20,353 bases of DNA. Source: Steroidobacteraceae bacterium. GTDB lineage: Bacteria; Pseudomonadota; Gammaproteobacteria; Steroidobacterales; Steroidobacteraceae. Positions 6,328 to 17,491 of the stretch are shown here, one piece after another. Position 1 is the stretch's first letter, and the number at the start of each line of letters is the position of its first letter. Under the pieces are notes generated by a model that worked only from the letters and a program-made list of their open reading frames with translations, had not been told where the DNA came from and ran no database searches. Where the stretch lies: assembly GCA_035276085.1 (NCBI GenBank), contig DATELY010000001.1:1-20353 (forward strand), read 5' to 3'. A program made the position numbers and the translations under genes.

Positions 6328-9300
6328 ATGCTAGCAGCCCATCAATCGTTGCGACTAAGCGCCTCGGATCTCGTCGGCCATCTCAACTGCCGGCATCTGA
6401 CGGCCCTCGAGCTCGAGGCGACCAATGGAACGATCGAGCGCCCAACTTTCCGCGATCCATTGCTGGAAATCCTGTGGGAACGCGGCGCACTCCACGAACG
6501 CCAGTACGTGGACTATCTTGCGAAGGAAGGCTACGCGGTCATCCACATCGAGGGCGTTGGGATTACTCAGGAAGCTGTGCAGCAAACGCAGGCCGCGATG
6601 AAAGCAGGCACTGAGGTCATAGTACAGGCCGCGCTGTCTGGTGGACGCTGGGGCGGCCGGCCCGACATCCTCAGACGCGCCGCGGCACCAAGCGCGCTTG
6701 GGAATTGGTCGTACGAAGTCCTAGACACGAAGCTTGCGCGCGAGACTAGAGGCGGCACAGTCCTGCAACTCTGCCTCTATGCGGATCTTCTTGCCACCGC
6801 TCAGGGACTGTCGCCGGAGTACATGTATGTCGTGAAACCCGGTGCAACCTTTGAGCTGCAGCGCTTCCGGACAGCCAGCTACGAAGCGTACTACCGATAC
6901 GTCAAACGTAGTCTTGAACGTTCGCTTGAGGCCGGTGACGCGACATATCCGAACCCGAAGGAGCACTGCGAGATCTGCCGCTGGCGCATGCAGTGCAACC
7001 TCAAGCAACGGCACGATGACCACCTGTGCCTTGTCGCAGGAATCACGAAAATACAGATTGGTGAGCTCCAGCGCTACGGAATTCACACTGCCGCCGCGCT
7101 CGCACGGATGCCCGTCCCATTACAGTGGAAGCCTGAGCGAGGAGTACCTCAGTCCTACGAGCGATCGCGTGAGCAGGCGCGCGTCCAAGTCGCAGCTCGT
7201 ACGTCGGGGCACCCAATCTACGAGACCATCCCACCGGAGCCCGGGATCGGACTGGCTCGACTGCCGGAACCATCGCCTGGCGACATCTTCTTCGATCTCG
7301 AGGGCGATCCATTCGTGGGTGAGGGTGGCCTTGAATTCCTTTTCGGCTACCTATTCCTCAGCGAGAATGGCGAGCAGTCCCATGTCGGAGAGTGGGCCTT
7401 CAATCGCAATGACGAACAACGCGCCTTCGAGCGCTTTGTTGATTTCACAATGGCGCGCTGGTCGCGGCATCCCGCGATGCACGTCTACCACTATGCATCT
7501 TACGAACCAGGCGCACTGAAGCGCCTGATGGGACGTTACGCCACGCGAGAGGACGAAGTAGACCGCATGCTTCGTGGCGGCCTGTTTGTCGATCTCTACA
7601 CGATCGTGCGGCAAGGCATTCGCGCCAGTGTCGAGAGCTATTCGATCAAGAATCTGGAAGTTTTCTGTGGCTTCACTCGTAAGGTGCCACTCGCCGACGT
7701 GCGCCCTGCCCTCGCGACCGTGCAGGCCGCATTGGAGCTTGCAGACTTAGCACAGGTCAGCGAGCAGGATCGGGAGATCGTCGAAGCGTACAACCGAGAT
7801 GATTGCGCTTCTGCCCAGGCGCTGCGCAATTGGCTGGAGGCTGTTCGGGCAAAGCTGATCACGGAAAGGGCAACGATCGCGCGCCCCGCGGCCGAGTCTT
7901 CCGAGCCCACACAGGAAATCGGCGAGCGCCAGCAACAGATCGAAGCACTGGTCGCCAGACTGACGCAGGGTGTCCCAGCAGAAATCGAAGGTCGCACTGC
8001 CGAGCAGCAAGGCCGATGGATCCTGGCCTACACGCTGGATTGGCACCGGCGCGAGCTCAAGTCGGTCTGGTGGGAATACTTTCGGCTCTCCGACCTGACC
8101 GTAGATGACCTTCTCGACGAGCGTTCCGCACTCGCGGGACTAGAGTTCATCCAGGAGATTGGCGGCACGAAGAAGGCCCCGATTCATCGCTATCGCTTCC
8201 CGGCTCAAGACACCGATCTGAGACCAGGGGACACACTCTGCATGGTGGGTGGTGAAAATCTCGGTCGGATCGAAGCTGTCTCGTATGAGGATCGAACGAT
8301 CGACATCAAGAAGCGAATGGACACCGCATCCGTGCATCCGCAGGCGGTCTTCGAGCATGACCTCGTCGGCACCAATGAGCAGGCCGATGCGCTGATGCGG
8401 CTCGGCATGCATGTGGCGGAACATCGGATAGAAGGGGATGGTCCGTATCAAGCAGCGCGCGATCTGCTGCTGCGTCGGTCACCGGTTGTTTCCCCCGTAC
8501 GCCATGCTGGCGAGACAACGCTGGCTGCGGCGACTCGTCTGGCTCCGATGCTTTCCTCCGGCGTATTGCCCATCCAGGGGCCGCCGGGTGCGGGCAAAAC
8601 GTACACCGCCGCACGCATGATTTGCGAGCTGGTTCGAGCTCGAAAGAAAGTCGGAATCACCGCCAACAGTCACAAGGTCATTCGCAACCTACTAAATGAG
8701 GTCGTGAAAGCAGCTGATGATCTAAATGTCGATATCTCTTGCGTTCAGAAGCCCGGGGAGCCCGAAGAGGATGTTCATCGCATCCGGTTCGCCAGAAAGA
8801 ACGAGGATGTCTTCGCCGCACTCGCTGGGAATTGCGATGTTGCCGGCGGAACCTCGTGGCTCTGGGCGCGCAAAGAGGCATTTGAGTCGGTCGATGTTCT
8901 GTTCGTGGATGAAGCAGCGCAGATGTCTCTCGCGAACGTGCTTGCAGTGGCGCACGCATGCAAGACGCTCATTCTCGTGGGCGACCCACAGCAACTGGAG
9001 CAACCTACGAAGGGCAGCCACCCTGAAGGTACGGACGTATCGGCGCTGCATCATATGCTTGGCGGCAAACCAACCATTGAAGCCGAACAAGGTCTGTTCC
9101 TCGAGGAAACCTGGCGGCTACATCCTGCTATCTGCAAATTCACTTCCGAACTTTTCTACGAGGACAAACTTCGACCCCGTCCTGGCCTCGAGCGCCAAAC
9201 GATCCGTTCGACGCGAGCGAATGGATCAGGACTGCGTTTCTTTGCTGTGGCACACGAAGGCAACCAGAACTCAGCGCCCGAGGAAGCCGATCAGATTCGC

Positions 9301-9705
9301 GCAATTGTTGACGACATCCTCGGCACAAGGAGCACTTGGGTCGACGCGAAAGGCAAGGAGCTGCCGCTTGAGCCCACAGATCTCCTCATCATCGCACCCT
9401 ACAATGCGCAGGTCTTCGAACTTCAGGAGCGCCTACCTGCCTTTCGCGTTGGTACCGCCGACAAGTTCCAGGGCCAGGAAGCACCGATCGTGATCTATTC
9501 GATGACCACTTCCACTCACGCTGACGCCCCACGAGGGATGGAGTTTTTGTACAGCTTAAACCGATTGAACGTTGCAACGTCGCGAGCGAAGTGCCTATGT
9601 ATTCTCGTAGGGTCGCCGGCGCTGTTTGAACCCGAATGCAAGACGCCTGGGCAAATGGAATTAGCGAATGCGTTCTGCCGATATCTGGAGATGGCTACAA
9701 GCTAG
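6328..9705 (+). CDS. Nuclease-helicase fusion: Cas4/RecB-family PD-(D/E)xK nuclease with Fe-S cysteines + DnaQ/RNase-H-like domain + SF1B (Upf1/DNA2-like) helicase
   Basis: N-terminal nuclease motifs: GRPDIL (motif II), YEVLDTKLA (E-x-D-x-K motif III), QLCLYADLL (QhxxY). Cys ligands: one Cys in LNCRHLTALE plus CEICRWRMQC (C-x2-C-x5-C), the Cas4/AddB 4Fe-4S pattern. Mid-region DIFFDLEGDPF and YHYASYEPG resemble DnaQ-like exonuclease I/II motifs. C-terminal helicase: Walker A IQGPPGAGKTYTAA, Walker B VLFVDEAAQM, LILVGDPQQL, motif VI VATSRAKCLCILVG. Confidence 0.8.
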   Translation: MLAAHQSLRLSASDLVGHLNCRHLTALELEATNGTIERPTFRDPLLEILWERGALHERQYVDYLAKEGYAVIHIEGVGITQEAVQQTQAAMKAGTEVIVQAALSGGRWGGRPDILRRAAAPSALGNWSYEVLDTKLARETRGGTVLQLCLYADLLATAQGLSPEYMYVVKPGATFELQRFRTASYEAYYRYVKRSLERSLEAGDATYPNPKEHCEICRWRMQCNLKQRHDDHLCLVAGITKIQIGELQRYGIHTAAALARMPVPLQWKPERGVPQSYERSREQARVQVAARTSGHPIYETIPPEPGIGLARLPEPSPGDIFFDLEGDPFVGEGGLEFLFGYLFLSENGEQSHVGEWAFNRNDEQRAFERFVDFTMARWSRHPAMHVYHYASYEPGALKRLMGRYATREDEVDRMLRGGLFVDLYTIVRQGIRASVESYSIKNLEVFCGFTRKVPLADVRPALATVQAALELADLAQVSEQDREIVEAYNRDDCASAQALRNWLEAVRAKLITERATIARPAAESSEPTQEIGERQQQIEALVARLTQGVPAEIEGRTAEQQGRWILAYTLDWHRRELKSVWWEYFRLSDLTVDDLLDERSALAGLEFIQEIGGTKKAPIHRYRFPAQDTDLRPGDTLCMVGGENLGRIEAVSYEDRTIDIKKRMDTASVHPQAVFEHDLVGTNEQADALMRLGMHVAEHRIEGDGPYQAARDLLLRRSPVVSPVRHAGETTLAAATRLAPMLSSGVLPIQGPPGAGKTYTAARMICELVRARKKVGITANSHKVIRNLLNEVVKAADDLNVDISCVQKPGEPEEDVHRIRFARKNEDVFAALAGNCDVAGGTSWLWARKEAFESVDVLFVDEAAQMSLANVLAVAHACKTLILVGDPQQLEQPTKGSHPEGTDVSALHHMLGGKPTIEAEQGLFLEETWRLHPAICKFTSELFYEDKLRPRPGLERQTIRSTRANGSGLRFFAVAHEGNQNSAPEEADQIRAIVDDILGTRSTWVDAKGKELPLEPTDLLIIAPYNAQVFELQERLPAFRVGTADKFQGQEAPIVIYSMTTSTHADAPRGMEFLYSLNRLNVATSRAKCLCILVGSPALFEPECKTPGQMELANAFCRYLEMATS

Positions 9706-9791
9706 GAGCTACGAAGTAAGCGATTAAGCTACCGCCTCGGGAACGCGCTGCCGATTAACTAATTCAGTTTGAAATCGGTGTTGGTGTATCA

Positions 9792-9817
9792 GGGAACTTG
9801 GGAGTTCCTCATTTCTT
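9792..9817 (+). terminator. Possible intrinsic terminator after the four-gene operon (GGAACT-TGGG-AGTTCC hairpin followed by TCATTTCTT)
   Basis: 6-bp perfect stem, 4-nt loop and a T-rich tail about 90 nt after the ORF4 stop. Short stem and imperfect U-tract. Confidence 0.3.
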
Positions 9818-10430
9818 GGAATCACTCTTCCAATGGGATCTTTTCCTTCGGCTAGATGACGGCTCACCGGACCATGACGCACAATGCGACGCTGCGAGCT
9901 TCATCAAATAGCTAACGGCACGCGCAGCTCGCGAGATGTACTCGCATCAACGCAGCACTGAGACACACGCCATGCTTTCGCACGAAGCAGTTGCACACGT
10001 AATAAAGCGTGCTAATCTCCGCGCGTATTCATTGACACGCGGCCGCGCGCCGCACAACTGAAGCGAAACTGAAATGCTCTCCATCCACGGAACAGCCATG
10101 CAAAGCACGCTACGCGAATTAAATCGCGCCGCGGTCGGCTGCCCGTCGATTACGGGTAGCTGGTCACGGCCTGTCGCGAAAAATCATCGCGACTTCGGGA
10201 CCGAACTCGATCGGTAACCGCCTTTAGGGCTCTTTGCCCCCGAAGGCGCAAGCCGGACGGGGCACCCACGGGAGCCTAGCCACCTGAGATCCCTCTCAGA
10301 GTCGGCGAAAACCACCCAAAACAGTGTTCCGTCCGCGAGGTAAAGCCCTCGATACGGATTCGTACGCGCTACGCGTATGGACCCCTGCGCCGCACGTTCG
10401 GCCAGGACGCTGTTTAACAATCAGAAATTG

Positions 10431-10595
10431 ATCAGGGCTCTCACCCTGATTTCGCATTGCGCACTGAATTCTTCAGCGGCGCGGCACGCGCGCGCGTCGA
10501 ACACGCGGTGATGTGTTTGTGAAGTGGAGGGTGAGAGCCCGGAGCTGGTGAGAAATTTTTTGAAGCACGTGAAAGCGTGAGGGTCTCACTCGCTC
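10431..10595. repeat. Repeated/inverted motif AGGGYTCTCAC upstream of the tRNA array: hairpin ATCAGGG-CTCTCA-CCCTGAT (10431-10450), inverted copy GGGTGAGAGCCC (10529-10540), third direct copy GGGTCTCAC (10582-10590); also a (CG)5 tract
   Basis: Read directly. The 12-mer GGGCTCTCACCC and its exact reverse complement lie about 83 nt apart. A one-mismatch direct copy lies about 15 nt before the first tRNA. Confidence 0.5.
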
Positions 10596-10603
10596 TGAAA
10601 TTT

Positions 10604-10679
10604 GCGGATGTAGCTCAATTGGCAGAGCGCGAGTCTTCCAAACTCGAGGTCATGGGTTCGATCCCCATCGTCCGCCCCA
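10604..10679 (+). tRNA. tRNA-Gly (anticodon TCC), CCA encoded
   Basis: Cloverleaf: acceptor GCGGATG/CGTCCGC, D-arm TAGCTCAATTGGCAGAGC, anticodon stem CGAGT/ACTCG with loop CTTCCAA, T-arm ATGGG-TTCGATC-CCCAT, discriminator C, CCA. Confidence 0.85.
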
Positions 10680-10737
10680 GATTTCGATGCACGTTGCGAC
10701 TCTCATGCGAGTTGAACGTGTGCATCTTAGTTGATTC

Positions 10738-10814
10738 GCGGATGTAGTTCAGTCAGGCAGAACACGACGTCGCCAACGTCGAGGCCATGGGTTCGAGTCC
10801 CATCGTCCGCACCA
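10738..10814 (+). tRNA. tRNA-Gly (anticodon GCC), CCA encoded
   Basis: Same acceptor as the preceding Gly. Anticodon stem CGACG/CGTCG with loop TCGCCAA. T-loop TTCGAGT. Paralog of the upstream Gly gene. Confidence 0.85.
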
Positions 10815-10823
10815 CTCAAGTTT

Positions 10824-10908
10824 GCCGACGTGGTTGAACTGGCAGACACGCCAGCCCGAGGAGCTGGTAGCGAAAGCTTTGCCGGTTCGAGTCCGGCCGT
10901 CGGCACCA
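10824..10908 (+). tRNA. tRNA-Leu (anticodon GAG), class II, CCA encoded
   Basis: Acceptor GCCGACG/CGTCGGC. Anticodon stem CCAGC/GCTGG with loop CCGAGGA (unusual C32 C33). Long variable arm. T-arm GCCGG-TTCGAGT-CCGGC. Aligns with E. coli Leu-GAG architecture. Confidence 0.7.
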
Positions 10909-10948
10909 ATGTGTGATTTCGTTCGTTAAACCACATAAGGAGAATGTC

Positions 10949-12166
10949 ATGAGCCTCGAGGAAATGACGAAGATCGACAACCTGAAGTCATGGATCTCGG
11001 GTGTCGACATCGATTGGGACACGGTGAAGCAGCTGCGCAACATCGCGGAGCTGCCGATCCTCGCAGGTCACGTGGCCGTGATGCCGGACGTGCATCTCGG
11101 CAAGGGCGCAACTGTGGGATCGGTGATTCCGACCAAGGGCGCGATCATTCCGGCTGCGGTCGGCGTGGACATCGGCTGCGGTATGGCGGCCGTGCGCACG
11201 GAGATCTCCGCGAATCAGTTGCCGGACTCGCTGCGTCGACTGCGCTTGCGCATCGAAGAGCGTGTGCCGGTCGGATTCAACTCGCACGATCGACCGCTCA
11301 ATCCTCTGCACGATGGCTTGCGCGGGGTTGCACTGTCGAATGCCGGCAAGAAGATGGCGGAGCGGTACAACACGCTCAAGATCATGGACGTCATCGGCAA
11401 GCACGACCACAAGCGCACGTACAACCAGCTGGGAACGCTGGGCGGCGGCAACCACTTCATCGAGCTGTGTGTCGATGAGTCGAACGGCGTGTGGGTAATG
11501 CTTCACTCCGGCTCGCGCAACATCGGCAAGACGATCGGGGAGACGGCGATCCACATGGCGCGCCAGATTGCGGAACGCGAGGAGCGCGGGCTGCGTGACC
11601 GCGACCTTGCGTGGCTTGACGAAGGTTCGGCCGAGTTCGACATGTACGTCGAAGGCCTGCGCTGGGCGCAAGACTATGCGGCTCACAACCGCGCTTTGAT
11701 GATGCACGAGGTGCTGGTCGCGCTTCGTGAGGAGTTCGGGCGCGAGATCGCGATGTTCGAGAACGCAGTCCAGTGTCACCACAACTATGCATCGGTCGAA
11801 GAGCACTTCGGCCAACAGGTGTGGGTAACCCGCAAGGGCGCGGTATCGGCGCGTCGCGACGAGCTCGGCATCATCCCTGGCTCAATGGGTGCCAAGTCGT
11901 TCATCGTGCGCGGTAAGGGCAATGCAGATTCGTATTGCTCCTGCTCGCATGGCGCCGGTCGTCGCCTCTCTCGCGGCGCTGCGAAGCGGACTTACACGCT
12001 CGCGGATCTGAAGAGGCAGACGGAAGGCGTCGAGTGCCGCAAGGACGAAGGCGTGCTCGATGAGATCCCGGGCGCCTACAAGGACATCGATATGGTCATG
12101 GCTGCGCAGGCCGACCTCGTCGACGTCGTACATACCTTGAAGCAAGTGATGTGCATCAAGGGTTGA
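10949..12166 (+). CDS. rtcB: RtcB-family 3'-phosphate/5'-hydroxyl RNA ligase
   Basis: RBS AAGGAGA 5 nt before ATG 10949. The ORF track's 10913 start lacks an RBS. Hallmark RtcB motifs: LGTLGGGNHFIEL, AVQCHHNYA (GMP-histidine region), CSCSHGAGRR, and the metal-binding-type HLGKGATVGS. Confidence 0.9.
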   Translation: MSLEEMTKIDNLKSWISGVDIDWDTVKQLRNIAELPILAGHVAVMPDVHLGKGATVGSVIPTKGAIIPAAVGVDIGCGMAAVRTEISANQLPDSLRRLRLRIEERVPVGFNSHDRPLNPLHDGLRGVALSNAGKKMAERYNTLKIMDVIGKHDHKRTYNQLGTLGGGNHFIELCVDESNGVWVMLHSGSRNIGKTIGETAIHMARQIAEREERGLRDRDLAWLDEGSAEFDMYVEGLRWAQDYAAHNRALMMHEVLVALREEFGREIAMFENAVQCHHNYASVEEHFGQQVWVTRKGAVSARRDELGIIPGSMGAKSFIVRGKGNADSYCSCSHGAGRRLSRGAAKRTYTLADLKRQTEGVECRKDEGVLDEIPGAYKDIDMVMAAQADLVDVVHTLKQVMCIKG

Positions 12167-12212
12167 TGTCTCTTCGAGGGTTGGGTGTACGGATGCACCC
12201 GACTCTCACTCT

Positions 12213-12365
12213 GCACCGGTAGCTCAATTGGTATGGTCGAGACCATTTCCGTTGGTCGGAGTTGCGGTTTCGCCGCTCCTGCGCGTCCATGCGCCCGCGG
12301 CATTCGCACATCCGTGTGCAGCACAAAACCGCCTGTTGGGGGTTCGAGTCCCTCCCGGTGTGCCA
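12213..12365 (+). tRNA. Aberrant 153-nt tRNA-like locus: 5' acceptor + D-arm start (GCACCGG TA GCTCAATTGGTA...) and 3' T-arm/acceptor/CCA (GGGGG-TTCGAGT-CCCTC CCGGTGT G CCA) separated by about 85 nt of extra hairpin-rich sequence; isotype undetermined
   Basis: Acceptor halves pair (GCACCGG/CCGGTGT with G1-U72). T-loop TTCGAGT and CCA are canonical. No standard anticodon arm was found by eye. A possible anticodon stem GCGGT...ACCGC flanks a roughly 55-nt insert. Confidence 0.4.
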
Positions 12366-12379
12366 CTTTTTCAAATGAT

Positions 12380-12464
12380 CCGTTCCTGGCGGAACTGGTA
12401 GACGCGCTGGGCTCAGAACTCAGTGTCTTCGGACATCCCGGTTCGACTCCGGGGGAACGGACCA
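12380..12464 (+). tRNA. tRNA-Leu (anticodon CAG), class II, CCA encoded
   Basis: Acceptor CCGTTCC/GGAACGG. D-arm TGGCGGAACTGGTAGACGCG as in E. coli Leu. Anticodon stem CTGGG/CTCAG with loop CTCAGAA. Variable arm GTGTC-TTCG-GACAT. T-arm CCCGG-TTCGACT-CCGGG. Confidence 0.8.
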
Positions 12465-12482
12465 CAACATCGTCTGATCTAC

Positions 12483-12694
12483 GCGGGCGTAGCGGAAAAG
12501 GTAAACGCGACCCTAAAACGTGAAGAGGGAAAGCCGAAGAGGCTACGCGGGTAATCAGCCGAGGCACGTGGTTGCGGATGCACCGAATGGCTACGCGAGT
12601 GGTCGCCAGGGAAGCGCGTTTCCAAGCCGACGCTGTCTTCGAGTAATGATCGGAGTTCCGCGATGTGCAGGTTCGAATCCTGTCGCCCGCACCA
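12483..12694 (+). tRNA. Aberrant 212-nt tRNA-like locus: 5' GCGGGCG TA GCGG... and 3' GCAGG-TTCGAAT-CCTGT CGCCCGC A CCA with perfectly complementary acceptor strands separated by about 135 nt; insert contains GGCTACGCG(G/A)G repeated three times
   Basis: Canonical T-arm, discriminator and CCA at the 3' end. A perfectly complementary 7-nt acceptor partner lies 200 nt upstream. Too short for a group I intron. Could be an interrupted or intron-containing tRNA, or a pseudogene plus fragment. Confidence 0.3.
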
Positions 12695-12710
12695 ATACTT
12701 CTTGAGCCGT

Positions 12711-12798
12711 GCGCTCCTGGTTGGAACTGGAAGACACGCCGCGCTTAAAACGCGGTGCTCATTCGAGCGTGCCGGTTCGAATCCGGCGGAGCGCACCA
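12711..12798 (+). tRNA. tRNA-Leu (anticodon TAA), class II, CCA encoded
   Basis: Acceptor GCGCTCC/GGAGCGC. Anticodon stem CCGCG/CGCGG with loop CTTAAAA. Variable arm GCTC-ATTC-GAGC. T-arm GCCGG-TTCGAAT-CCGGC. Confidence 0.85.
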
Positions 12799-12814
12799 CT
12801 GGTTCGATTCTTTC

Positions 12815-12900
12815 GCGTCCCTGGTTGGAATTGGAATACACGCTGCGCTCAAAACGCAGTGCCTTCGGGCATGCCGGTTCGAATCCGGCGGGACGCACCA
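12815..12900 (+). tRNA. tRNA-Leu (anticodon CAA), class II, CCA encoded
   Basis: Paralog of the preceding Leu-TAA (same D-arm and T-arm). Anticodon stem CTGCG/CGCAG with loop CTCAAAA. Variable arm TGCC-TTCG-GGCA. Confidence 0.85.
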
Positions 12901-12908
12901 GTTTCTGC

Positions 12909-12985
12909 GGATCGTTAGCTCAATTGGCCAGAGCATCCGGTTCTTACCCGGCAGGTTGAAGGTTCGATTCCTTCACGGTCCACCA
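12909..12985 (+). tRNA. tRNA-Lys (anticodon CTT), CCA encoded
   Basis: Acceptor GGATCGT/ACGGTCC. Anticodon stem TCCGG/CCGGC (27-43 mismatch) with loop TTCTTAC. T-loop TTCGATT. Confidence 0.75.
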
Positions 12986-13001
12986 ACATCACCTTGTGCA
13001 G

Positions 13002-13076
13002 GGGCGTGTAGCTCAAGGGTTAGAGCATCCGGCTTTTAACCGGACGGCGAGGGTTCGATCCCCTCCGCGCCCACCA
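13002..13076 (+). tRNA. tRNA-Lys (anticodon TTT), CCA encoded
   Basis: Acceptor GGGCGTG/CGCGCCC. Anticodon stem TCCGG/CCGGA with loop CTTTTAA. T-arm GAGGG-TTCGATC-CCCTC. Confidence 0.85.
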
Positions 13077-13078
13077 CT

Positions 13079-13152
13079 TGGGGCTTCGTCTAGCGGCAGG
13101 ACATCGCGCTTTGAACGCGAGAACTCAGGTTCGAACCCTGGAGCCCCAGCCA
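13079..13152 (+). tRNA. tRNA-Gln (anticodon TTG), CCA encoded
   Basis: U1-A72 acceptor TGGGGCT/AGCCCCA (a Gln hallmark). Anticodon stem TCGCG/CGCGA with loop CTTTGAA. T-loop TTCGAAC. Discriminator G. Confidence 0.85.
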
Positions 13153-13167
13153 CACGCGATTGCGAAT

Positions 13168-13243
13168 GCCACGTTAACTCAGCGGCCAGAGTGCTCGCCT
13201 GTCTAGCGAGAAGTCACGGGTTCGAATCCCGTACGTGGCGCCA
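13168..13243 (+). tRNA. tRNA-Asp (anticodon GTC), CCA encoded
   Basis: Acceptor GCCACGT/ACGTGGC. Anticodon stem CTCGC/GCGAG with loop CTGTCTA. T-arm ACGGG-TTCGAAT-CCCGT. Discriminator G. Confidence 0.85.
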
Positions 13244-13249
13244 GATCAC

Positions 13250-13325
13250 GCACCGATAGCTCAGCTGGTAGAGCGCCTGGTTGAAGCCCAGGAGGCCGCA
13301 GGGTCGAAACCTGCTCGGTGCACCA
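13250..13325 (+). tRNA. tRNA-Phe (anticodon GAA), CCA encoded, atypical T-loop GTCGAAA and G37
   Basis: Acceptor GCACCGA/TCGGTGC. Anticodon stem CCTGG/CCAGG with loop TTGAAGC. T-stem GCAGG/CCTGC with loop GTCGAAA (G at position 54). Confidence 0.7.
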
Positions 13326-13335
13326 CTTTCATCGT

Positions 13336-13411
13336 TGGCCAGTAGCTCAGTTGGCAGAGCACTCCGCTGTTACCGGAGCCGTCACAGGTTCGAGTCCTGT
13401 CTGGCCAGCCA
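13336..13411 (+). tRNA. tRNA-Asn (anticodon GTT), CCA encoded
   Basis: Acceptor TGGCCAG/CTGGCCA (U1-A72). Anticodon stem CTCCG/CGGAG with loop CTGTTAC. T-arm ACAGG-TTCGAGT-CCTGT. Confidence 0.8.
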
Positions 13412-13445
13412 CATCTTTTGAATAGCGAACCAAGAGGAGAACGCG

Positions 13446-13688
13446 ATGACTTCGATCAAAGAGATGGTGGCGAACGGCCGCAAAGTTCGATTCACGCACT
13501 ACAAGTCCGGTGAGCTCTGGTACGAGACGGAGTGCGGATTCGCATTCCCTGTACCGACCGCGGATGCAGGCGACGGATGTTTCCTAGCTGAAGACAAGGC
13601 GCTGCTGTTCATGCGCTACATCAGGAAGCACAAAGAGGTGCTCGATCACGCGCGTGCTGACGCTGAGTCCGCCGACCAACAGCCATAG
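13446..13688 (+). CDS. Hypothetical small protein (80 aa) embedded in the tRNA array
   Basis: Strong RBS AAGAGGAGA 6 nt before ATG 13446. ORF sits in an otherwise tRNA-only interval. No recognisable motif. Followed by a hairpin-rich repeat. Confidence 0.5.
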   Translation: MTSIKEMVANGRKVRFTHYKSGELWYETECGFAFPVPTADAGDGCFLAEDKALLFMRYIRKHKEVLDHARADAESADQQP

Positions 13689-13695
13689 GTGAAGT

Positions 13696-13917
13696 CCCTT
13701 TACGCGAGGTCCCGAAGGCCCGGCCTCGCGAGAGCTCGGAACTCACTCTTGGGACACACGGGACGCGCGCGAACACGCGCGTTCGGGCCGCACTGATTCG
13801 ACGCTTTGACCAGGCCCTTTGCGCGAGAGTCCACCGCCCCAACCTCGCGAGGAGCATAGATACGCCTCCTTGGGACGAACGGGAACGCCGCAGATTCTGC
13901 GGTCAGTACTCGGGGCC
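13696..13917 (+). repeat. Tandem direct repeat, two copies of a roughly 100-nt element (copy A 13696-13789, copy B 13815-13917, period about 119 nt) with conserved blocks CCCTTTRCGCGAG / CCTCGCGAGRAGC / CTTGGGACRMACGGGA / CGGGCC and hairpins at matching positions built from different sequence
   Basis: Read directly. First hairpin CGCGAGG...CCTCGCG in both copies. Second hairpin ACGCGCG-CGAACA-CGCGCGT in A versus CCGCAG-ATT-CTGCGG in B. Same position, different sequence, which suggests a conserved RNA or DNA structure. Confidence 0.5.
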
Positions 13918-13928
13918 CCAACACACTC

Positions 13929-14003
13929 GCACGTATAGCTCAGCGGGAGAGCGCCGCTCTTACAAAGCGGAAGTCCTTGGTTCAATCCCAAGTGCGTGCG
14001 CCA
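13929..14003 (+). tRNA. tRNA-Val (anticodon TAC), CCA encoded
   Basis: Acceptor GCACGTA/TGCGTGC. Anticodon stem CCGCT/AGCGG with loop CTTACAA. T-arm CTTGG-TTCAATC-CCAAG. Confidence 0.85.
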
Positions 14004-14009
14004 CTTCAT

Positions 14010-14087
14010 GCGACGTTAGCTCAGATGGAACAGAGCGCCGGTTTGCGATGCCGGAGGCCGAAGGTTCAAGTCCTTCACGTCGCACCA
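14010..14087 (+). tRNA. tRNA-Arg (anticodon GCG), CCA encoded
   Basis: Acceptor GCGACGT/ACGTCGC. Anticodon stem CCGGT/GCCGG with loop TTGCGAT. T-arm GAAGG-TTCAAGT-CCTTC. Confidence 0.75.
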
Positions 14088-14094
14088 CATGTTC

Positions 14095-14171
14095 GCTCTC
14101 ATCGTCTAGTTGGACCAGGACACCTCCCTCTCACGGAGAAGACTGGAGTTCGAATCTCCATGAGAGCGCCA
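14095..14171 (+). tRNA. tRNA-Glu (anticodon CTC), CCA encoded
   Basis: Acceptor GCTCTCA/TGAGAGC. Glu-type D-arm TCGTCTAGTTGGACCAGGACA. Anticodon stem CCTCC/GGAGA (27-43 mismatch) with loop CTCTCAC. T-arm TGGAG-TTCGAAT-CTCCA. Confidence 0.8.
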
Positions 14172-14176
14172 CTGTT

Positions 14177-14255
14177 CGTTCCCGTCGTCTAGCCCGGCTC
14201 AGGACGCCGCCCTTTCAAGGCGAGAACACGAGTTCGAATCTCGTCGGGAACACCA
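14177..14255 (+). tRNA. tRNA-Glu (anticodon TTC), CCA encoded
   Basis: Acceptor GTTCCCG/CGGGAAC. Anticodon stem CCGCC/GGCGA with loop CTTTCAA. T-arm ACGAG-TTCGAAT-CTCGT. Confidence 0.8.
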
Positions 14256-14287
14256 ACCACGCGCGCATCTGGCGCGTACGAATTGAT

Positions 14288-14362
14288 TGGGAAGTCGTCT
14301 AACCGGCAGGACAGCGGACTCTGACTCCGCGAATGTGGGTTCGAGCCCTACCTTCCCAACCA
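14288..14362 (+). tRNA. tRNA-Gln (anticodon CTG), CCA encoded
   Basis: U1-A72 acceptor TGGGAAG/CTTCCCA. Anticodon stem GCGGA/TCCGC with loop CTCTGAC. T-arm GTGGG-TTCGAGC-CCTAC. Confidence 0.8.
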
Positions 14363-14378
14363 ACGCAAAGCTCACGAT

Positions 14379-14456
14379 GGTGGCGTTAGCTCAGTCGGTC
14401 AGAGTCCCGAGCTGTGAACTCGGAGGTCGTGGGTTCGAACCCCACACGTCGCCCCA
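14379..14456 (+). tRNA. tRNA-His (anticodon GTG) with encoded G-1 and C73, CCA encoded
   Basis: Extra 5' G before acceptor GTGGCGT pairs with discriminator C, the bacterial His hallmark. Anticodon stem CCGAG/CTCGG with loop CTGTGAA. T-arm GTGGG-TTCGAAC-CCCAC. Closely resembles E. coli tRNA-His. Confidence 0.85.
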
Positions 14457-14464
14457 ACTTCAAC

Positions 14465-14540
14465 GCCGAGATAGCTCAGCAGGCAGAGCAGCTGCTTCGT
14501 AAGCAGCATGTGGTCGGTTCGACTCCGACTCTCGGCTCCA
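14465..14540 (+). tRNA. tRNA-Thr (anticodon CGT), CCA encoded
   Basis: Acceptor GCCGAGA/TCTCGGC. Anticodon stem GCTGC/GCAGC with loop TTCGTAA. T-arm GTCGG-TTCGACT-CCGAC. Discriminator T. Confidence 0.85.
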
Positions 14541-14551
14541 TACTCTTGATC

Positions 14552-14639
14552 GCACTCGTGGCCGAGCGGCTGAAGGCGCCGGACTGCAATTCCGGTGAGC
14601 ACATGCTCCACGTCAGTTCGAATCTGACCGAGTGCTCCA
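14552..14639 (+). tRNA. Class II (long variable arm) tRNA with Cys anticodon GCA and U73 discriminator; Ser-like D-arm (TGGCCGAGCGGCTGAAGGC)
   Basis: Perfect acceptor GCACTCG/CGAGTGC. 3-bp D-stem GCC/GGC with a Ser-type D-loop. Anticodon stem CCGGA/TCCGG with loop CTGCAAT. 16-nt variable arm TGAGCACATGCTCCAC (GAGCA/TGCTC stem). T-arm GTCAG-TTCGAAT-CTGAC. T73, CCA. Confidence 0.65.
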
Positions 14640-14650
14640 CTCTCTTCTTC

Positions 14651-14729
14651 AGGGACTTAGCGCAGCCTGGTCAGCGCACCTGCCTTGGGCGGAGGGGGGT
14701 CGCGAGTTCGAATCTCGCAGTCCCTACCA
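14651..14729 (+). tRNA. tRNA-Pro (anticodon TGG), CCA encoded
   Basis: Acceptor AGGGACT/AGTCCCT. D-arm TAGCGCAGCCTGGTCAGCGC like E. coli Pro. Anticodon loop CTTGGGC (G37), stem with one mismatch, irregular variable region. T-arm GCGAG-TTCGAAT-CTCGC. Confidence 0.65.
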
Positions 14730-14737
14730 TTTTCATT

Positions 14738-14814
14738 CTCGATGTAGCTCAGCTTGGCAGAGCGCTTCGTTCGGGACGAAGAGGCCGCGCGTTCGAGTCG
14801 CGCCATCGAGACCA
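14738..14814 (+). tRNA. tRNA-Pro (anticodon CGG), CCA encoded
   Basis: Acceptor CTCGATG/CATCGAG. Anticodon stem CTTCG/CGAAG with loop TTCGGGA. T-arm GCGCG-TTCGAGT-CGCGC. Very similar to E. coli proK. Confidence 0.85.
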
Positions 14815-14827
14815 CTTTTTCTTCTAT

Positions 14828-14904
14828 GGCCGCTTAGCTCAATTGGCGAGAGCGCTCGACCGATAATCGAGAGGTTGCTGGTTCGAGTCCAGCAGCGGCT
14901 ACCA
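14828..14904 (+). tRNA. tRNA-Ile (anticodon GAT) with unusual C33, CCA encoded
   Basis: Acceptor GGCCGCT/AGCGGCT (G1-U72). Anticodon stem CTCGA/TCGAG with loop CCGATAA. T-arm GCTGG-TTCGAGT-CCAGC. Confidence 0.7.
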
Positions 14905-14914
14905 ACGTTCCACT

Positions 14915-14991
14915 GGGCCTGTAGCTCCAACTGGCAGAGCGCCTGCCTTGCAAGCAGGACGGTGCGAGTTCGAATCTCGCCAGGTCCACCA
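14915..14991 (+). tRNA. tRNA-Ala (anticodon TGC) with G3-U70, CCA encoded
   Basis: Acceptor GGGCCTG/CAGGTCC carries the G3·U70 alanine identity pair. Anticodon stem CCTGC/GCAGG with loop CTTGCAA. T-arm GCGAG-TTCGAAT-CTCGC. Confidence 0.85.
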
Positions 14992-14996
14992 TCTTC

Positions 14997-15073
14997 CGTG
15001 CAGTGGCGAAGCGGCCTAACGCACCGGTCTCATAAGCCGGTCATCGATGGTTCGAATCCATCCTGCACGACCA
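14997..15073 (+). tRNA. tRNA with CAT anticodon (elongator Met or lysidine-Ile; not initiator-like), CCA encoded
   Basis: Acceptor CGTGCAG/CTGCACG with C1-G72 paired. 3-bp D-stem. Anticodon loop CTCATAA. No GGG/CCC run in the anticodon stem. T-arm GATGG-TTCGAAT-CCATC. Confidence 0.75.
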
Positions 15074-15105
15074 TGTTTCTTCAACCACCATAAAGGAGGA
15101 GTTCG

Positions 15106-15678
15106 ATGAGTCCGCATATTCTCGCGCTCGACGTCGCCGGCGCTCCGCACCGGTGGATCAACGTTCGTACCGCTGCACACTACTACGCGACCGACATGAT
15201 CGCGTGGGCTGCCGGCGCGAGCGAGTTCACGCTGCGTGGTGGCACTCAGCGCTCGACGGGTTTGCAGTCACTCATTCGTGCGAGTTCGATCGTCGCCATC
15301 AAGGGCAAGGACTTCATCGTCCGCCACTTCGATCAGGTGCCGACGCTCACGAAGGAGATGCTGCTCGCTCGCGATCGATATCTGTGTTCGTACTGCGCGC
15401 AGCGGTTTCGCTTCGAGCAGCTCGACATGGAGCACATCGTGCCGCGCTCAAAGGGCGGCGAGGATTCCTGGATGAACCTCGTCGCCGCGTGCAAGGCGTG
15501 CAACAACCGTAAGGCCAACCGCACGCCGGAGGCTGCCGGCATGAAGCTGCACTACGTACCGTATGTACCGAACCGGTACGAGGCCTTCATCTTGAGCAAC
15601 CGCAAGATCCTGGCGGACCAGATGGAGTTTCTGCTCCAGGGTGTGCCGAAGGGCTCTCGAATGCACTTGAACGCCTAG
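15106..15678 (+). CDS. HNH endonuclease (190 aa)
   Basis: RBS AAAGGAGGAG 6 nt before ATG 15106. Classic HNH/zinc-finger motif CSYCAQRF...MEHIVPRSKGGEDSWMNLVAACKACNNRK (C-x2-C...H...N...C-x2-C-N). Confidence 0.85.
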   Translation: MSPHILALDVAGAPHRWINVRTAAHYYATDMIAWAAGASEFTLRGGTQRSTGLQSLIRASSIVAIKGKDFIVRHFDQVPTLTKEMLLARDRYLCSYCAQRFRFEQLDMEHIVPRSKGGEDSWMNLVAACKACNNRKANRTPEAAGMKLHYVPYVPNRYEAFILSNRKILADQMEFLLQGVPKGSRMHLNA

Positions 15679-15682
15679 GAAA

Positions 15683-15710
15683 GGCAGGCAGAGCTGCGGC
15701 TCCGCCTGCC
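15683..15710 (+). terminator. GC-rich hairpin GGCAGGC-(AGAGCTGCGGCTCC)-GCCTGCC immediately after the HNH stop; no U-tract
   Basis: 7-bp outer stem plus inner GAGC/GCTC pairing, 5 nt after the stop codon. Confidence 0.3.
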
Positions 15711-15759
15711 GCCGTACACCACTTACAACCAAACTGACACAATGAGACAGGAGGGCCCA

Positions 15760-17097
15760 ATGGAAGAGAAAACATTCTTGAGCAAGCTGGGCTCTCGCCT
15801 CTTCGCTCATCCCGGCTTTGAGAATCTCGTGGCGCTTTCAACCAGCGCCAACGGCTTCAGGCGGGAGGATGCCGTACGCCGACTTGGGATGCTGGGCGAC
15901 CCACGAGCGATCCCTTGCCTGATTGTTCGCGCCAACGATTGGGTTCCTCAGGTTCGGACGGCTGCATTCGATGCATTGATCCGAATGCTCAAGTCTGGAA
16001 ACGGCGATGCGTTCGTTACTTCACTGCCGCAGATCCTTCACCTGCAGAGCTGCAGCCGCGGCGATCACACCGAGCTGCTAGCGGCGATTCGTGAGTTTCT
16101 GCTGCGTGAGCAGAACCGAAGCGCTCTTCTCGCCGGAATGGAGAATCGAGACAGCCGTGTAGCAAGGCTCGTTACTCGCTTAGTGGTCGATCACCAGTTG
16201 ATGGCGCCTGCCGAGCTTGTGACGAAGGGTCTGGCACACAGCGATGTGCTTGTCCGGTCCATCATCGTGGATCTTTTGCAGCGGCTGACTCAGGACGAGT
16301 TCGAGACGTTGGCTGACAGGGTTCTCGGAGACACCTACATGCCAGTACGTCGCGAAGCGTTCCAACAGCTTCTGCGGCGGATGCCGGGACGGGGTACGGT
16401 AGCCGCACGGAATCTTTTGTTCGACCGATCCGCGTCGATCCGAGAGATAGCTGTTCAACACCTCCTTGCTCAGGGCGAGTCTGTCGATGAGATCTATGCC
16501 AGTGCGCTGGCAAGGAACGGCGGTCACGCAGCAACAGTCAGATGCGTGCTGTGGGGTTGGGCGCTGATGAACAATCAGGCTCGCGCTGTGCAGGTTGAGC
16601 AATTTCTCGTTTCACCTGTTCCGGCGATCCGTCGCGCTGCCCTGTCCTCAATTGGACGGCTTCTGCGCACAGCGGCAGGCCCGCATCTCGAGAAGGGTCT
16701 CGGAGATGCGTCCCCTGCTGTATGCAACGAAGCAGCTAGATTGATCAGCAGAATCGGTGTTTCCCCCGGCATCGAAACTCTCATGGCGATTGCTACTTCG
16801 AGTGGCCTTGCTCATGTTGCCTACGCTTGCTGTCGCGTAGCCCGCGACGGCAACAAGTGGAACTGGCTGAGGTTCATCCTGGGCGTGTATGGCCGCTCCG
16901 CGTGCGAGATCTCATCGGAAGTTTTCTCAAGAGAGATCGACGCGTGGGAGTGGCAGTTCAACCGCAGCTACGCACAACCGGATCCGCATCAGTTGGCGGA
17001 AGTCGTGCAGTTGTTTGCAGCCTCCCGAGATCGGCTCTCGACGGGGCGCGTTCAACTACTGGCGTTCACGCTCCGAACTTACGGTGGTGCCGTATGA
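15760..17097 (+). CDS. HEAT-repeat (PBS-lyase-type) protein, about 445 aa
   Basis: RBS AGGAGGG 6 nt before ATG 15760. The track's 15742 start lies 18 nt upstream in frame. Repeated DxxVRxxAxxALGxLGDPRAIPxL-type units (EDAVRRLGMLGDPRAIPCLIVRANDWVPQVRTAAFDALIRML; AIRRAALSSIGRLL) typical of HEAT/PBS-lyase repeats. Confidence 0.65.
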   Translation: MEEKTFLSKLGSRLFAHPGFENLVALSTSANGFRREDAVRRLGMLGDPRAIPCLIVRANDWVPQVRTAAFDALIRMLKSGNGDAFVTSLPQILHLQSCSRGDHTELLAAIREFLLREQNRSALLAGMENRDSRVARLVTRLVVDHQLMAPAELVTKGLAHSDVLVRSIIVDLLQRLTQDEFETLADRVLGDTYMPVRREAFQQLLRRMPGRGTVAARNLLFDRSASIREIAVQHLLAQGESVDEIYASALARNGGHAATVRCVLWGWALMNNQARAVQVEQFLVSPVPAIRRAALSSIGRLLRTAAGPHLEKGLGDASPAVCNEAARLISRIGVSPGIETLMAIATSSGLAHVAYACCRVARDGNKWNWLRFILGVYGRSACEISSEVFSREIDAWEWQFNRSYAQPDPHQLAEVVQLFAASRDRLSTGRVQLLAFTLRTYGGAV

Positions 17098-17127
17098 GTC
17101 GCCGCACGAACGCATAGTGCGAGAAAG

Positions 17128-17155
17128 TCGGCAGGCGGAAATGGGTCCGCCTGCC
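17128..17155 (+). terminator. Hairpin CGGCAGGCGG-AAATGGGT-CCGCCTGCCG (10-bp stem) 30 nt after the HEAT-repeat gene
   Basis: Perfect 10-bp GC-rich stem followed by GTATTC. Weak U-tract. Confidence 0.4.
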
Positions 17156-17321
17156 GCGTATTCAAAGAATTTCGATGAGCGCGCCACAACAATAGATACG
17201 GCGCTCATCGTCACCGAGGTCTAGGCCAGCGTTTCGTGTCAGCGGTTGTGGGTTCACACCACACTGGCGCGCTGCAGCTCTGCTGCTGTGTGTACCGCGC
17301 GAACGCAACCTTCACCACCAT

Positions 17322-17394
17322 TGCAATGTAGCTCAGTGGGTAGAGCAAGCAGCTCATAACTGCTCGGTCGAGGGTTCGACTCCCTCTATTGCGA
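17322..17394 (+). tRNA. tRNA-Met-like (anticodon CAT) without encoded CCA and with a weak acceptor stem (two G·U pairs including 1-72); possibly a host or degenerate copy
   Basis: Good D-arm TAGCTCAGTGGGTAGAGCA. Anticodon stem AGCAG/CTGCT with loop CTCATAA. T-arm GAGGG-TTCGACT-CCCTC. Acceptor TGCAATG/TATTGCG is imperfect. It is the only tRNA here not followed by CCA. Confidence 0.5.
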
Positions 17395-17427
17395 CGACTT
17401 TGCCAAGTCGTACTGGTAAGGCCTCAC

Positions 17428-17459: not shown

Positions 17460-17473
17460 GTTGCATCCTCTTC

Positions 17474-17491
17474 GCGGGACGCAAGTCCCGC
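17474..17491 (+). other. Perfect 7-bp hairpin with GNRA tetraloop (GCGGGAC-GCAA-GTCCCGC)
   Basis: Read directly. Lies between the tRNA fragment and the SPFH gene. Confidence 0.4.

Follow-up and report, generated by a model that had tools for sequence, protein, structure and literature searches.

Background

L-arrays are sets of roughly 20–43 tRNA genes in one orientation and at a spacing that allows co-transcription, gained by horizontal transfer and additional to the housekeeping tRNAs (PMC8421152). An HNH endonuclease is conserved beside the L-operons of cyanobacteria, some of which also have rtcB as a neighbour or within them. In Anabaena, co-transcription of the trn operon and its processing by RNase P and RNase Z were demonstrated, and the operon is co-induced under translational stress with all8564, encoding an HNH protein, and with rtcB (PMC8421152). 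A single repressor, TrcR, acts on the trn array, on rtcB, on two HNH genes and on alr0739–alr0740, the last one encoding a slipin, that is, an SPFH protein (PMC10272220). Here we consider an rtcB gene embedded in an array of tRNA genes, and the cassette around both, in a 20,353-nucleotide (nt) stretch of DNA from a Steroidobacteraceae bacterium (contig DATELY010000001.1 of assembly GCA_035276085.1), called the window below.

The second close relative is the Band-7/b7a-tRNA/RtcB repair system of Burroughs and Aravind (2016), taken here as it is described in a preprint (bioRxiv 10.1101/312249). According to that description, the simple form consists of a tRNA-like RNA, an SPFH protein and RtcB, and nothing else; the expression of b7a-tRNA and its partnership with RtcB and Band-7 are said there to be unvalidated in the literature.

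Two further groups share only part of the composition. The rtcBA/RtcR system, described together with rsr-yrlBA-rtcBA in E. coli and Salmonella, has been linked to tRNA repair, with tRNA fragments as its inducers; for Salmonella, the support for RtcB in tRNA repair is indirect (PMC7790460). Phages, such as T4 with Pnk/Rnl1 acting against PrrC, and the T5-like and jumbo phages, whose tRNA-rich regions come with RtcB or Rnl ligases, follow a logic of tRNA supply or resealing (PMC10264068, PMC11555353, PMC7824862).

Sequences and searches

The window is matched by two ENA metagenome contigs, L001 and L002, at 99.6–99.9% identity, L001 being its duplicate. The nearest genome is an uncultured Steroidobacteraceae metagenome-assembled genome, whose locus is denoted L003. 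The comparison set comprises 80 viral, 80 genome and 80 metagenome loci bearing RtcB, about 3 Mb of related sequence; among the labels used below, L007 is a cultured Steroidobacter, L078 a Blastocatellia locus, L126 viral, L243 Methylibium and L244 Variovorax. The tRNA genes were called by ARAGORN and Rfam, with the Rfam cut-off E≤1 for null calls in the region 9500–17800. The Pfam scan covered the nine large open reading frames (ORFs) of the window, smaller ORFs being outside it, and negative statements about protein domains in the window refer to these nine.

The cassette

We interpret the locus as a horizontally mobile operon for tRNA back-up and repair, in which an L-array is fused with a Band-7/b7a-tRNA/RtcB system, situated in a chromosomal defence island. 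We consider this reading fairly probable. The cassette takes about 9 kb of a single strand (+, about 9988–18990) and consists of a leader, 25 tRNA genes encoding CCA, rtcB, a gene for an HNH protein, a CCA-less tRNA-like RNA, an SPFH/Band-7 gene and a terminator:

9988–10603, + strand, conserved non-coding leader preceding the tRNA genes (blastn and MAFFT against L003 5306–5889)
10604–10908, + strand, three tRNA genes, Gly(UCC), Gly(GCC) and Leu(GAG), CCA encoded (ARAGORN; Rfam, 43–70 bits)
10949–12166, + strand, rtcB, predicted RNA 3'-phosphate/2',3'-cyclic phosphate to 5'-OH ligase of 405 amino acids (aa), Pfam PF01139
12380–12464, + strand, tRNA-Leu(CAG), between the interrupted genes A and B (ARAGORN, Rfam)
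12711–13411, + strand, eight tRNA genes, Leu UAA, Leu CAA, Lys CUU, Lys UUU, Gln UUG, Asp GUC, Phe GAA and Asn GUU
13929–15073, + strand, thirteen tRNA genes, Val UAC, Arg GCG, Glu CUC, Glu UUC, Gln CUG, His GUG, Thr CGU, Cys GCA, Pro UGG, Pro CGG, Ile GAU, Ala UGC and Met CAU
15106–15678, + strand, HNH endonuclease (Pfam HNH_5, E=6e-16; HNH, E=8.5e-15)
17322–17395, + strand, b7a-tRNA, a tRNA-like RNA upstream of the Band-7 gene, called "Met(CAU)" (Rfam tRNA, 62.2 bits)
17792–18937, + strand, SPFH/Band-7 (slipin-like) protein of 381 aa (Pfam Band_7, E=2e-36)
18959–18986, + strand, strong intrinsic terminator at which the cassette ends, made up of a 12-bp stem and a T run behind it

The rtcB gene starts with ATG and has a Shine-Dalgarno sequence, AAGGAG, 7 nt upstream of the start. 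Its product is covered by PF01139 from end to end (E=4.4e-127, residues 28–405 against profile positions 1–426) and matches the PHROG family "tRNA splicing ligase" at E=3e-143 and the RtcB chains of PDB at E~1e-30. In the MAFFT alignment of 241 homologues the residues Asp74, Cys77, His169, His186, His278 and His334 are invariant. His334 is the histidine that accepts guanosine monophosphate, the metal ligands (Asp, Cys and three His) are all intact, and the motifs GVDIGCG, GGGNHF, MLHSGSR, CHHN and SCSHGAGR align with those of the crystallised Pyrococcus and Thermus enzymes. Hence RtcB of the window is, to judge from its residues, catalytically intact.

The gene is separated by 40 nt from tRNA-Leu(GAG), ending at 10908, and by 46 nt from the tRNA-Trp-derived gene A, starting at 12213. 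An earlier note on this DNA had placed an RtcB gene at 10949–12166, inside the tRNA array and with no rtcA or rtcR alongside, and had named loss of the catalytic residues as the observation that would speak against its reading; the full-length domain match, the tRNA-derived genes on both sides and the six intact residues agree with that description. RtcA, RtcR, archease and Ro/TROVE were not found among the nine ORFs. The best YrlA score in the window is 25.7 bits against the gathering score of 69, and it falls on ordinary tRNAs; the Rfam positive controls were recovered in the metagenome loci L186 (9472–9599) and L195 (9727–9846), where the YrlA Y-RNA lies just upstream of rtcB. PADLOC yields no match for either the RtcB or the SPFH protein.

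The tRNA array comprises 25 canonical genes at 10604–15073, all on the + strand and called concordantly by ARAGORN and Rfam (43–72 bits); the one further tRNA call, at 17322–17395, is b7a-tRNA. The 25 genes have 25 different anticodons and serve 17 amino acids, all of them encode CCA, and most spacers between them are 2–30 nt long. Tandem Repeats Finder returned no rows for the array, i.e. it is non-periodic, in contrast to accretive arrays. With 25 canonical and two disrupted tRNA genes on one strand, no periodicity and an HNH protein similar to all8564, it has the defining structural features of an L-array.

The HNH gene, already located in the earlier note, follows the array, and both CxxC pairs and the H-N-N core of its product are intact. 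The protein is 87% identical to that of L003, 46% to that of L004, and 41% to Anabaena all8564 over the core (pairwise E=9e-23). Full-length identity is 48–52% with the HNH proteins at the 3' ends of arrays of 23–27 genes on Methylibium, Variovorax and Polaromonas megaplasmids, 48% for the array-end HNH of Methylibium PM1. PADLOC matches are restricted to generic HNH cores, e.g. PtuB (E=1e-12) and Cas9, and the best full-length PHROG match is a phage HNH. HNH chemistry leaves 3'-OH/5'-P ends, which are not substrates of RtcB. The protein belongs to the family that flanks L-arrays and, most simply, would be a homing or mobility nuclease; in this respect its inclusion in a possible repair or counter-defence cassette by the earlier note is unsupported.

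The SPFH/Band-7 gene closes the cassette. Its product has no obvious transmembrane segment by eye and is 92% identical to its L003 counterpart, and homologues at 39–61% identity are encoded beside RtcB in about 19 loci. Counted by source, SPFH homologues accompany RtcB in 10 of the 80 genome loci, 10 of the 80 metagenome loci and none of the 80 viral ones. Upstream of it lies b7a-tRNA, with U at the 5' end and no encoded CCA, in contrast to all 25 tRNAs of the array. Besides the window and its duplicate L001, 12 further RtcB loci have an element of this type, located some 400 nt ahead of their SPFH gene. The body is conserved (TAGCTCAGTGGGTAGAGCAA...GGTTCGA), and 11 different anticodons are seen across the 13 distinct loci, CAU in the window and CAG in the L003 orthologue among them. 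The earlier note had overlooked both the SPFH gene and the tRNA-like RNA, which place the locus in the Band-7/b7a-tRNA/RtcB system.

The spacer between b7a-tRNA and the SPFH gene (17396–17790) is 77% conserved with L003 and holds, around 17430–17460, a second remnant resembling a T-arm and acceptor (GGGGTTCGACTCCCC...GCCA). In L004, L035 and L081 two adjacent tRNA-like genes occupy the b7a-tRNA position.

The boundaries of the cassette are seen in the comparison with L003. The shared block, window positions 9988–18966, is 81–94% conserved and has the same order in both loci (leader of about 600 nt, tRNAs, rtcB, tRNAs, HNH, tRNA-like gene, SPFH/Band-7, terminator), and the flanks on both sides are unrelated. 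The homology stops at the terminator, whose stem is maintained by compensatory changes; beyond it the sequences differ entirely, the neighbours in L003 being an isochorismatase gene upstream and MarR and glyoxalase genes downstream. Thus a common block between unrelated flanks indicates that the cassette of about 9 kb has been moved or shuffled. No terminator signal above chance is present inside the cassette, the strong one after the SPFH gene being the only one.

The leader is 81% identical to L003 5306–5889 over 615 aligned bases (blastn), with the mean column identity of 87% in the MAFFT alignment. The alignment contains indels of 1 nt, which argue against coding. It also supports a long-range stem of 13 bp (about 10432–10444 with about 10530–10542) that includes a compensatory change from A-U to G-C, and RNAalifold finds 4 compensatory pairs. 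The promoter probably lies in the leader, together with a structured 5' RNA, and the leader is a candidate regulatory RNA or operator region. It belongs to no Rfam family and has no homologue upstream of the other arrays among the comparison loci by BLAST and nhmmer; no sigma-54 motif was seen in it by eye. Its core, approximately 10215–10335, is nearly identical to L003, exceeding rtcB DNA in conservation.

Recurrence of the linkage

The closest relatives of the window RtcB are those of L003 (94% identity) and of L004, L163 and L164 (69–73%). Adjacent tRNAs are present in every member of this clade and HNH in three of the four relatives, L163 having 22 tRNAs. RtcB from L007, the sole cultured Steroidobacter genome in the set, is 58% identical, and its locus has no tRNAs, HNH or SPFH.

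Other array-linked RtcBs occur in L078 (27 tRNAs and HNH), L176 (27 tRNAs), L242 (25), L215 (5 tRNAs, HNH and SPFH) and the viral L126 (36). They are of other lineages, 51–68% identical to one another. The nearest RtcB relatives of L078 and L215 have no array, and some of those of L176 and L242 are linked to an array or to HNH. Since array-linked RtcBs fall into distinct lineages, and the nearest relatives of two of them are arrayless, the linkage has arisen more than once. Moreover, because the same arrangement recurs both in relatives and in unrelated RtcB lineages, the embedding of rtcB in the array is not a matter of chance; the outcome that the earlier note had set against itself, rtcB absent from homologous arrays or distributed randomly among them, is not what is observed. 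In the whole set, 11 of 80 viral, 3 of 80 genome and 4 of 80 metagenome loci have a tRNA gene no more than 300 nt from rtcB.

Arranged by tRNA number, the loci make up a series that begins with one tRNA-like gene in the simple b7a form and leads, through 3–5 tRNAs with HNH and SPFH (L004, L215), to 25–27 tRNAs. HNH homologues mark the ends of L-arrays on the Methylibium, Variovorax and Nostoc 7120 plasmids. In the Variovorax array, an ATP-dependent RNA ligase of PF09414 (L244 6668–7729) is embedded in the place of RtcB, and in the Methylibium array an HD-domain protein and an AlkB-like dioxygenase (L243 6185–7537) are embedded instead. Hence repair genes are displaced within related arrays, including a swap of the ligase family. 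The series of 1 to 27 tRNAs beside the same SPFH, HNH and RtcB genes, together with the ligase swap, argues that the arrays are tied to RNA-damage conflicts rather than to codon supply.

Comparison with described systems

The window array shares with that of Anabaena (Nostoc PCC 7120) more than 20 non-periodic tRNA genes on one strand, a homologous HNH gene at the array edge, linkage to RtcB, the involvement of an SPFH protein (a slipin of the same regulon there), signs of horizontal spread and pseudogenes within the array. Whereas Anabaena has rtcB and the SPFH gene elsewhere in the genome, here both lie physically within one cassette with the array; the host is a proteobacterium, HNH follows the array instead of preceding it, and no TrcR is seen in the window.

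Like the Band-7/b7a-tRNA/RtcB system, as far as it is described in the preprint cited above, the cassette combines RtcB, an SPFH/Band-7 protein and a CCA-less tRNA-like RNA of variable anticodon directly upstream of the Band-7 gene. It departs from the simple form, as given there, in having 25 tRNA genes, the HNH gene and a gene for a HEAT-repeat protein in between.

Also close are the arrays on betaproteobacterial megaplasmids, Methylibium petroleiphilum PM1 RPME01 and Variovorax sp. RA8 plasmid 3, with a full-length HNH homologue of 48–50% identity at the 3' end of 23–27 tRNA genes, embedded repair genes and a tRNA-Cys(GCA) with a long variable arm. They differ in carrying the PF09414 ligase, or the HD-domain and AlkB-like proteins, and not RtcB; no SPFH gene is annotated within 9 kb on either side of HNH in the Methylibium and Variovorax records.

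With rtcBA/RtcR and rsr-yrlBA-rtcBA the cassette has in common the ligase family and a tRNA-shaped non-coding RNA beside it, but it contains real tRNA genes, and RtcA, RtcR, Ro60 and YrlA are missing from the nine ORFs and the Rfam search. The phage strategies follow the same logic of supply and resealing; however, no recognisable phage surrounds the cassette, SPFH and b7a-tRNA are present, and RtcB, unlike the T4 Pnk/Rnl1 pair, needs no end healing of the Pnk type.

The linkage of array, RtcB and HNH has been published (PMC8421152, PMC10272220), as has, according to 10.1101/312249, that of RtcB, Band-7 and a tRNA-like RNA, and so the linkage pointed out in the earlier note is not novel. The locus adds a proteobacterial example to published module types and is not a new system. 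Its modest contribution is that a single predicted transcription unit of about 9 kb unites four components that are scattered yet co-regulated in Anabaena, namely the tRNA array, HNH, RtcB and slipin/SPFH. In it the L-array/HNH and Band-7/b7a-tRNA/RtcB modules are physically combined, connecting two literatures that stand apart in the papers cited here.

Proposed mechanism

Transcription would start in the leader, yield one or a few long transcripts and end at the terminator (18959–18986). RNase P and RNase Z would release the CCA-encoding tRNAs, freeing the messages of rtcB, HNH and SPFH. Impaired translation or tRNA cleavage may raise expression, a response seen experimentally in the trn array, rtcB, HNH and slipin genes of Anabaena. 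Anticodon nucleases, be they toxins, colicins, toxin-antitoxin modules or defence systems, would leave 2',3'-cyclic-phosphate and 5'-OH ends, which RtcB could reseal. The 25 array tRNAs for 17 amino acids, some with C33 loops, would replace or dilute the damaged ones, or serve as decoys. For the ligase, the SPFH protein and the CCA-less tRNA-like RNA may be a scaffold, a cofactor or a decoy. HNH may serve the spread or maintenance of the cassette, not repair.

Several observations weigh against this interpretation. The cassette is known here from sequence alone, and the roles of SPFH, b7a-tRNA and HNH are putative in all systems. Neither a sigma-70 consensus promoter nor a regulator, RtcR or TrcR-like, was found in the window. 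Two disrupted tRNA genes, A and B, adjoin rtcB. RtcB is optional in L-arrays, being absent from those of Nostoc 7120 and Methylibium, and the test of stem substitutions in the tRNA genes (see below) is biased in favour of the expected result. On balance the evidence supports tRNA supply and repair for the cell, within a defence island. Being compact, the proteobacterial cassette may be transferred whole to a model host, so that protection against anticodon nucleases can be tested directly.

Embedded and flanking genes, and alternative explanations

Further genes are situated between the components of the cassette and upstream of it:

470–6265 of the window, complete Shango system: SngA (TerB-N/TerB/TerB-C), SngB (BrxD-like ATPase) and SngC (DEAD helicase)
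6328–9705 of the window, Mokosh-like fusion of 1125 aa: TM0106-type RecB nuclease, RNase H-like domain and SF1 helicase, with similarity to Mokosh MkoA/MkoC
13446–13688, + strand, orf80, an ORF of 80 aa, phrog_20427 (E=4.6e-31), a phage-associated family; no Pfam match
15742–17097, + strand, HEAT-repeat protein of 451 aa, Pfam HEAT_2/HEAT, between HNH and b7a-tRNA

The orf80 gene is followed by 240 nt of GC-rich non-coding DNA with internal imperfect repeats (13689–13928). The whole segment 13446–13928 is inserted between tRNA-Asn and tRNA-Val, where L003 has a spacer of 6 nt. The HEAT gene has no counterpart in L003 or any other comparison locus, and the only PADLOC signal of its product is a weak HEAT-ARM match; it is a window-specific insertion, and its membership in the system is doubtful.

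With the Shango and Mokosh-like genes directly upstream, the cassette looks like a resident of a chromosomal defence island. Just past its terminator, at 19206–20345 on the − strand, a flotillin-like protein is encoded, the second member of the SPFH superfamily in the window. A homologue at 47% identity is found in L215 (8092–9177), a locus that also has tRNAs, HNH and SPFH, 2.6 kb from RtcB; L003 has none.

The main alternative is that the cassette is counter-defence cargo of a phage or an integrative and conjugative element, present or recently shed, which replaces and repairs tRNAs destroyed by anticodon-nuclease immunity of the host. RtcB is often found beside or inside tRNA arrays in phage contigs (L105, L109, L122, L126 and L129), orf80 and the HNH protein have the phage matches given above, and the context of the cassette differs between two close relatives, the window and L003. 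Supply of tRNAs as counter-defence (PMC10264068, PMC11555353) and RNA ligases in jumbo phages (PMC7824862) are both described in the literature. However, Pfam detects no integrase, relaxase, capsid or virion gene, or other gene of a mobile genetic element, in the nine large window ORFs, and none occurs in those L003 and L004 flanks that were examined, the search for att repeats being not exhaustive. The neighbours are defence genes, the SPFH partner never accompanies RtcB in the viral loci, and annotated phage and plasmid collections contain no close DNA relative, only short rtcB segments. We regard this alternative as unlikely, though it is the one to be taken most seriously. Thus, of the earlier note's proposal of a module for tRNA supply and repair serving a mobile element against host defence, the supply and repair part is supported by the intact RtcB, the recurring linkage and the ligase swap, whereas the counter-defence part is disfavoured by the lack of integrase and phage structural genes in the window and by the Shango and Mokosh-like neighbours.

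The cassette could also be an addiction or toxin-antidote unit, in which HNH attacks tRNAs or tRNA genes, and the array with RtcB is the resistant substitute or antidote. The association of HNH with arrays is indeed the most constant feature across phyla, but the 3'-OH/5'-P ends left by HNH are not joinable by RtcB. The HNH core resembles PtuB (the PADLOC match given above), and PtuAB of retron-Eco7 causes depletion of tRNA-Tyr (PMC11555353); however, direct tRNA cleavage by PtuB itself is unproven in that work, the similarity is confined to the generic HNH core, where models of Cas9, IscB and phage HNH score equal to or above PtuB, and no PtuA-like ATPase partner is present. This reading seems to us quite improbable.

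Hitch-hiking, that is, rtcB brought into the array by chance recombination and having no functional tie to it, would agree with the fast gain and loss of genes in arrays (compared with the window, L003 is short of 10 intact tRNA genes, gene B, orf80 and the HEAT gene) and with the embedding of unrelated genes, HEAT and orf80. Against it, phages and several separate RtcB lineages show the linkage again, another RNA ligase family occupies the same slot of a related array, and Anabaena regulates rtcB jointly with the trn array (PMC8421152, PMC10272220); we consider it very improbable.

Interrupted tRNA genes

Two tRNA genes that escape standard scans flank tRNA-Leu(CAG), within 530 nt downstream of rtcB:

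12213–12365, + strand, gene A, derived from tRNA-Trp(CCA), orthologue of the intact L003 tRNA-Trp 7323–7398 (constrained fold)
12483–12694, + strand, gene B, similar to tRNA-Tyr(GUA) (ARAGORN intron mode and custom scan)

Gene A contains a hairpin of about 25 nt in the D-loop and an insert of about 52 nt with two hairpins in the anticodon loop, between C34 and C35. In gene B, an insert of about 129 nt follows U33; its D-arm and the region of position 26 are poor, and the anticodon stem has a C·A mismatch. The acceptor stem, T-arm and CCA are intact in both. Without the inserts the loops would read UU-CCA-AA (Trp, A) and CU-GUA-AU (Tyr, B), and the exon junctions predicted under splicing are GCGGUUUC joined to CAAAACCGC for A and ...ACCCU joined to GUAAUGAUCGG for B. 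Of the three amino acids that the 25-tRNA array does not serve, two are Trp and Tyr.

Run in intron mode, ARAGORN makes about 23 calls per 3 Mb, and many are spurious. The custom scan of 3 Mb yielded 8 long tRNA-like genes, A and B included. Insert-bearing tRNAs as a general trait of RtcB-linked arrays were considered and rejected, as the other six are two tRNAs with group I introns (L083, L105), two carrying or adjoining YrlA (L186, L195), and those of L198 and L137. The tmRNA calls of a relaxed ARAGORN run appeared at sub-threshold settings only and were discarded, and the view of the inserts as a repeated mobile element was abandoned, as neither the window nor the 3 Mb of related loci contains a second copy.

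No Rfam family is matched at E≤1 by gene A, gene B, the leader or the 13689–13928 spacer, so that YrlA, group I introns, tmRNA and the known small ribozymes are excluded as far as Rfam models them. The Intron_gpI model in particular has no match at E≤1 in 9500–17800, and the positive controls were found in L083 and L105; these are RtcB-bearing phage contigs with group I introns in tRNA-Leu(UAA) and tRNA-Met genes (L083 13631–13916, L105 7330–7603). The smallest known self-splicing group I introns are about 200 nt long, the inserts of 52 and 129 nt being shorter. Bulge-helix-bulge scores at the three insert junctions were matched or beaten by 217–498 of 500 shuffles, and no splicing endonuclease domain (EndA/Sen) occurs among the nine large ORFs.

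Genes A and B are most likely recent pseudogenes in an array of fast turnover; the Anabaena trn array also holds three pseudogenes (PMC8421152). Even so, with acceptor stems and T-arms intact, they may provide processing signals for RNase P and RNase Z.

One could suppose instead that both are functional, the inserts, neither group I nor bulge-helix-bulge, being cut out by a nuclease or a self-cleaving RNA to leave cyclic-phosphate and 5'-OH ends, and the exons being joined by the co-transcribed RtcB; if true, this would be protein-ligase-dependent tRNA splicing in a bacterium, and we give it very little credence. That RtcB is the splicing ligase for A and B, a view suggested by the restored canonical loops, the missing Trp and Tyr, the intact acceptor stems, T-arms and CCA, the proximity of rtcB and the dissimilarity of the inserts to group I introns and all Rfam families, is the least probable of the alternatives, as removal of any clean insertion restores the loop and so does not speak for splicing, L003 has an uninterrupted orthologue of A beside the same RtcB, A has a second insert in its D-loop and B a mismatched anticodon stem and a poor D-arm, neither a bulge-helix-bulge above shuffles nor an endonuclease among the nine ORFs is seen, the inserts have no homologues in 3 Mb, and intact Trp and Tyr genes are present in other RtcB-linked arrays.

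Instead of covariation, the inserts of the window, L001 and L002 show only a recombination-like patch in the insert of B (12560–12607), which is not decisive. Eight of the 28 differences between the window and L002 fall within these 48 nt, including a change from GCG to TTC in the loop of the hairpin GGCTAC-GCGA-GTGGTC with the stem kept. The patch looks like a product of recombination or a local hot spot.

Variation of the array tRNAs

Leu(GAG) is truncated in L003. Ten orthologous tRNA pairs of equal length between the window and L003 differ by 38 substitutions in 768 nt (about 5%), compared with about 13% for rtcB DNA. All 14 of the 14 stem substitutions in orthologous pairs retain pairing, a count shifted towards kept pairs, as the structure was derived from those same pairs. 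The pattern fits purifying selection acting on folded tRNAs.

Three tRNAs of the array, Gly GCC (10738–10814), Leu GAG (10824–10908) and Ile GAU (14828–14904), have C33 instead of the near-universal U33, and array tRNAs with C33 are also found in L003, L078, L163, L176, L242, L243, L244 and others. Over all loci, tRNAs without U33 make 27 of 296 in arrays of at least 8 genes against 1 of 71 in runs of 3–7. Base 33 toggles between the window and L003 in the orthologues of Val UAC and His GUG. The C33 loops could be nuclease-evading variation, the comparison covering tRNAs of long arrays and of shorter runs. A further deviation is U37 in tRNA-Asp GUC at 13168.

The tRNA-Cys(GCA) gene (14552–14639, 88 nt) is class-II-shaped. 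It combines a Ser-like D-arm, a long variable arm, the 7/5 acceptor/T geometry and U73, and so differs from the 8/4 selC*-type of PMC7609411. Class-II-shaped tRNA-Cys genes of 82–88 nt are seen as well in L163 (4240–4327), L243 (6077–6163), L244 (7770–7856), L122, L109, L129 and L229, the form with the long variable arm accounting for 9 of the 15 tRNA-Cys genes across the loci.

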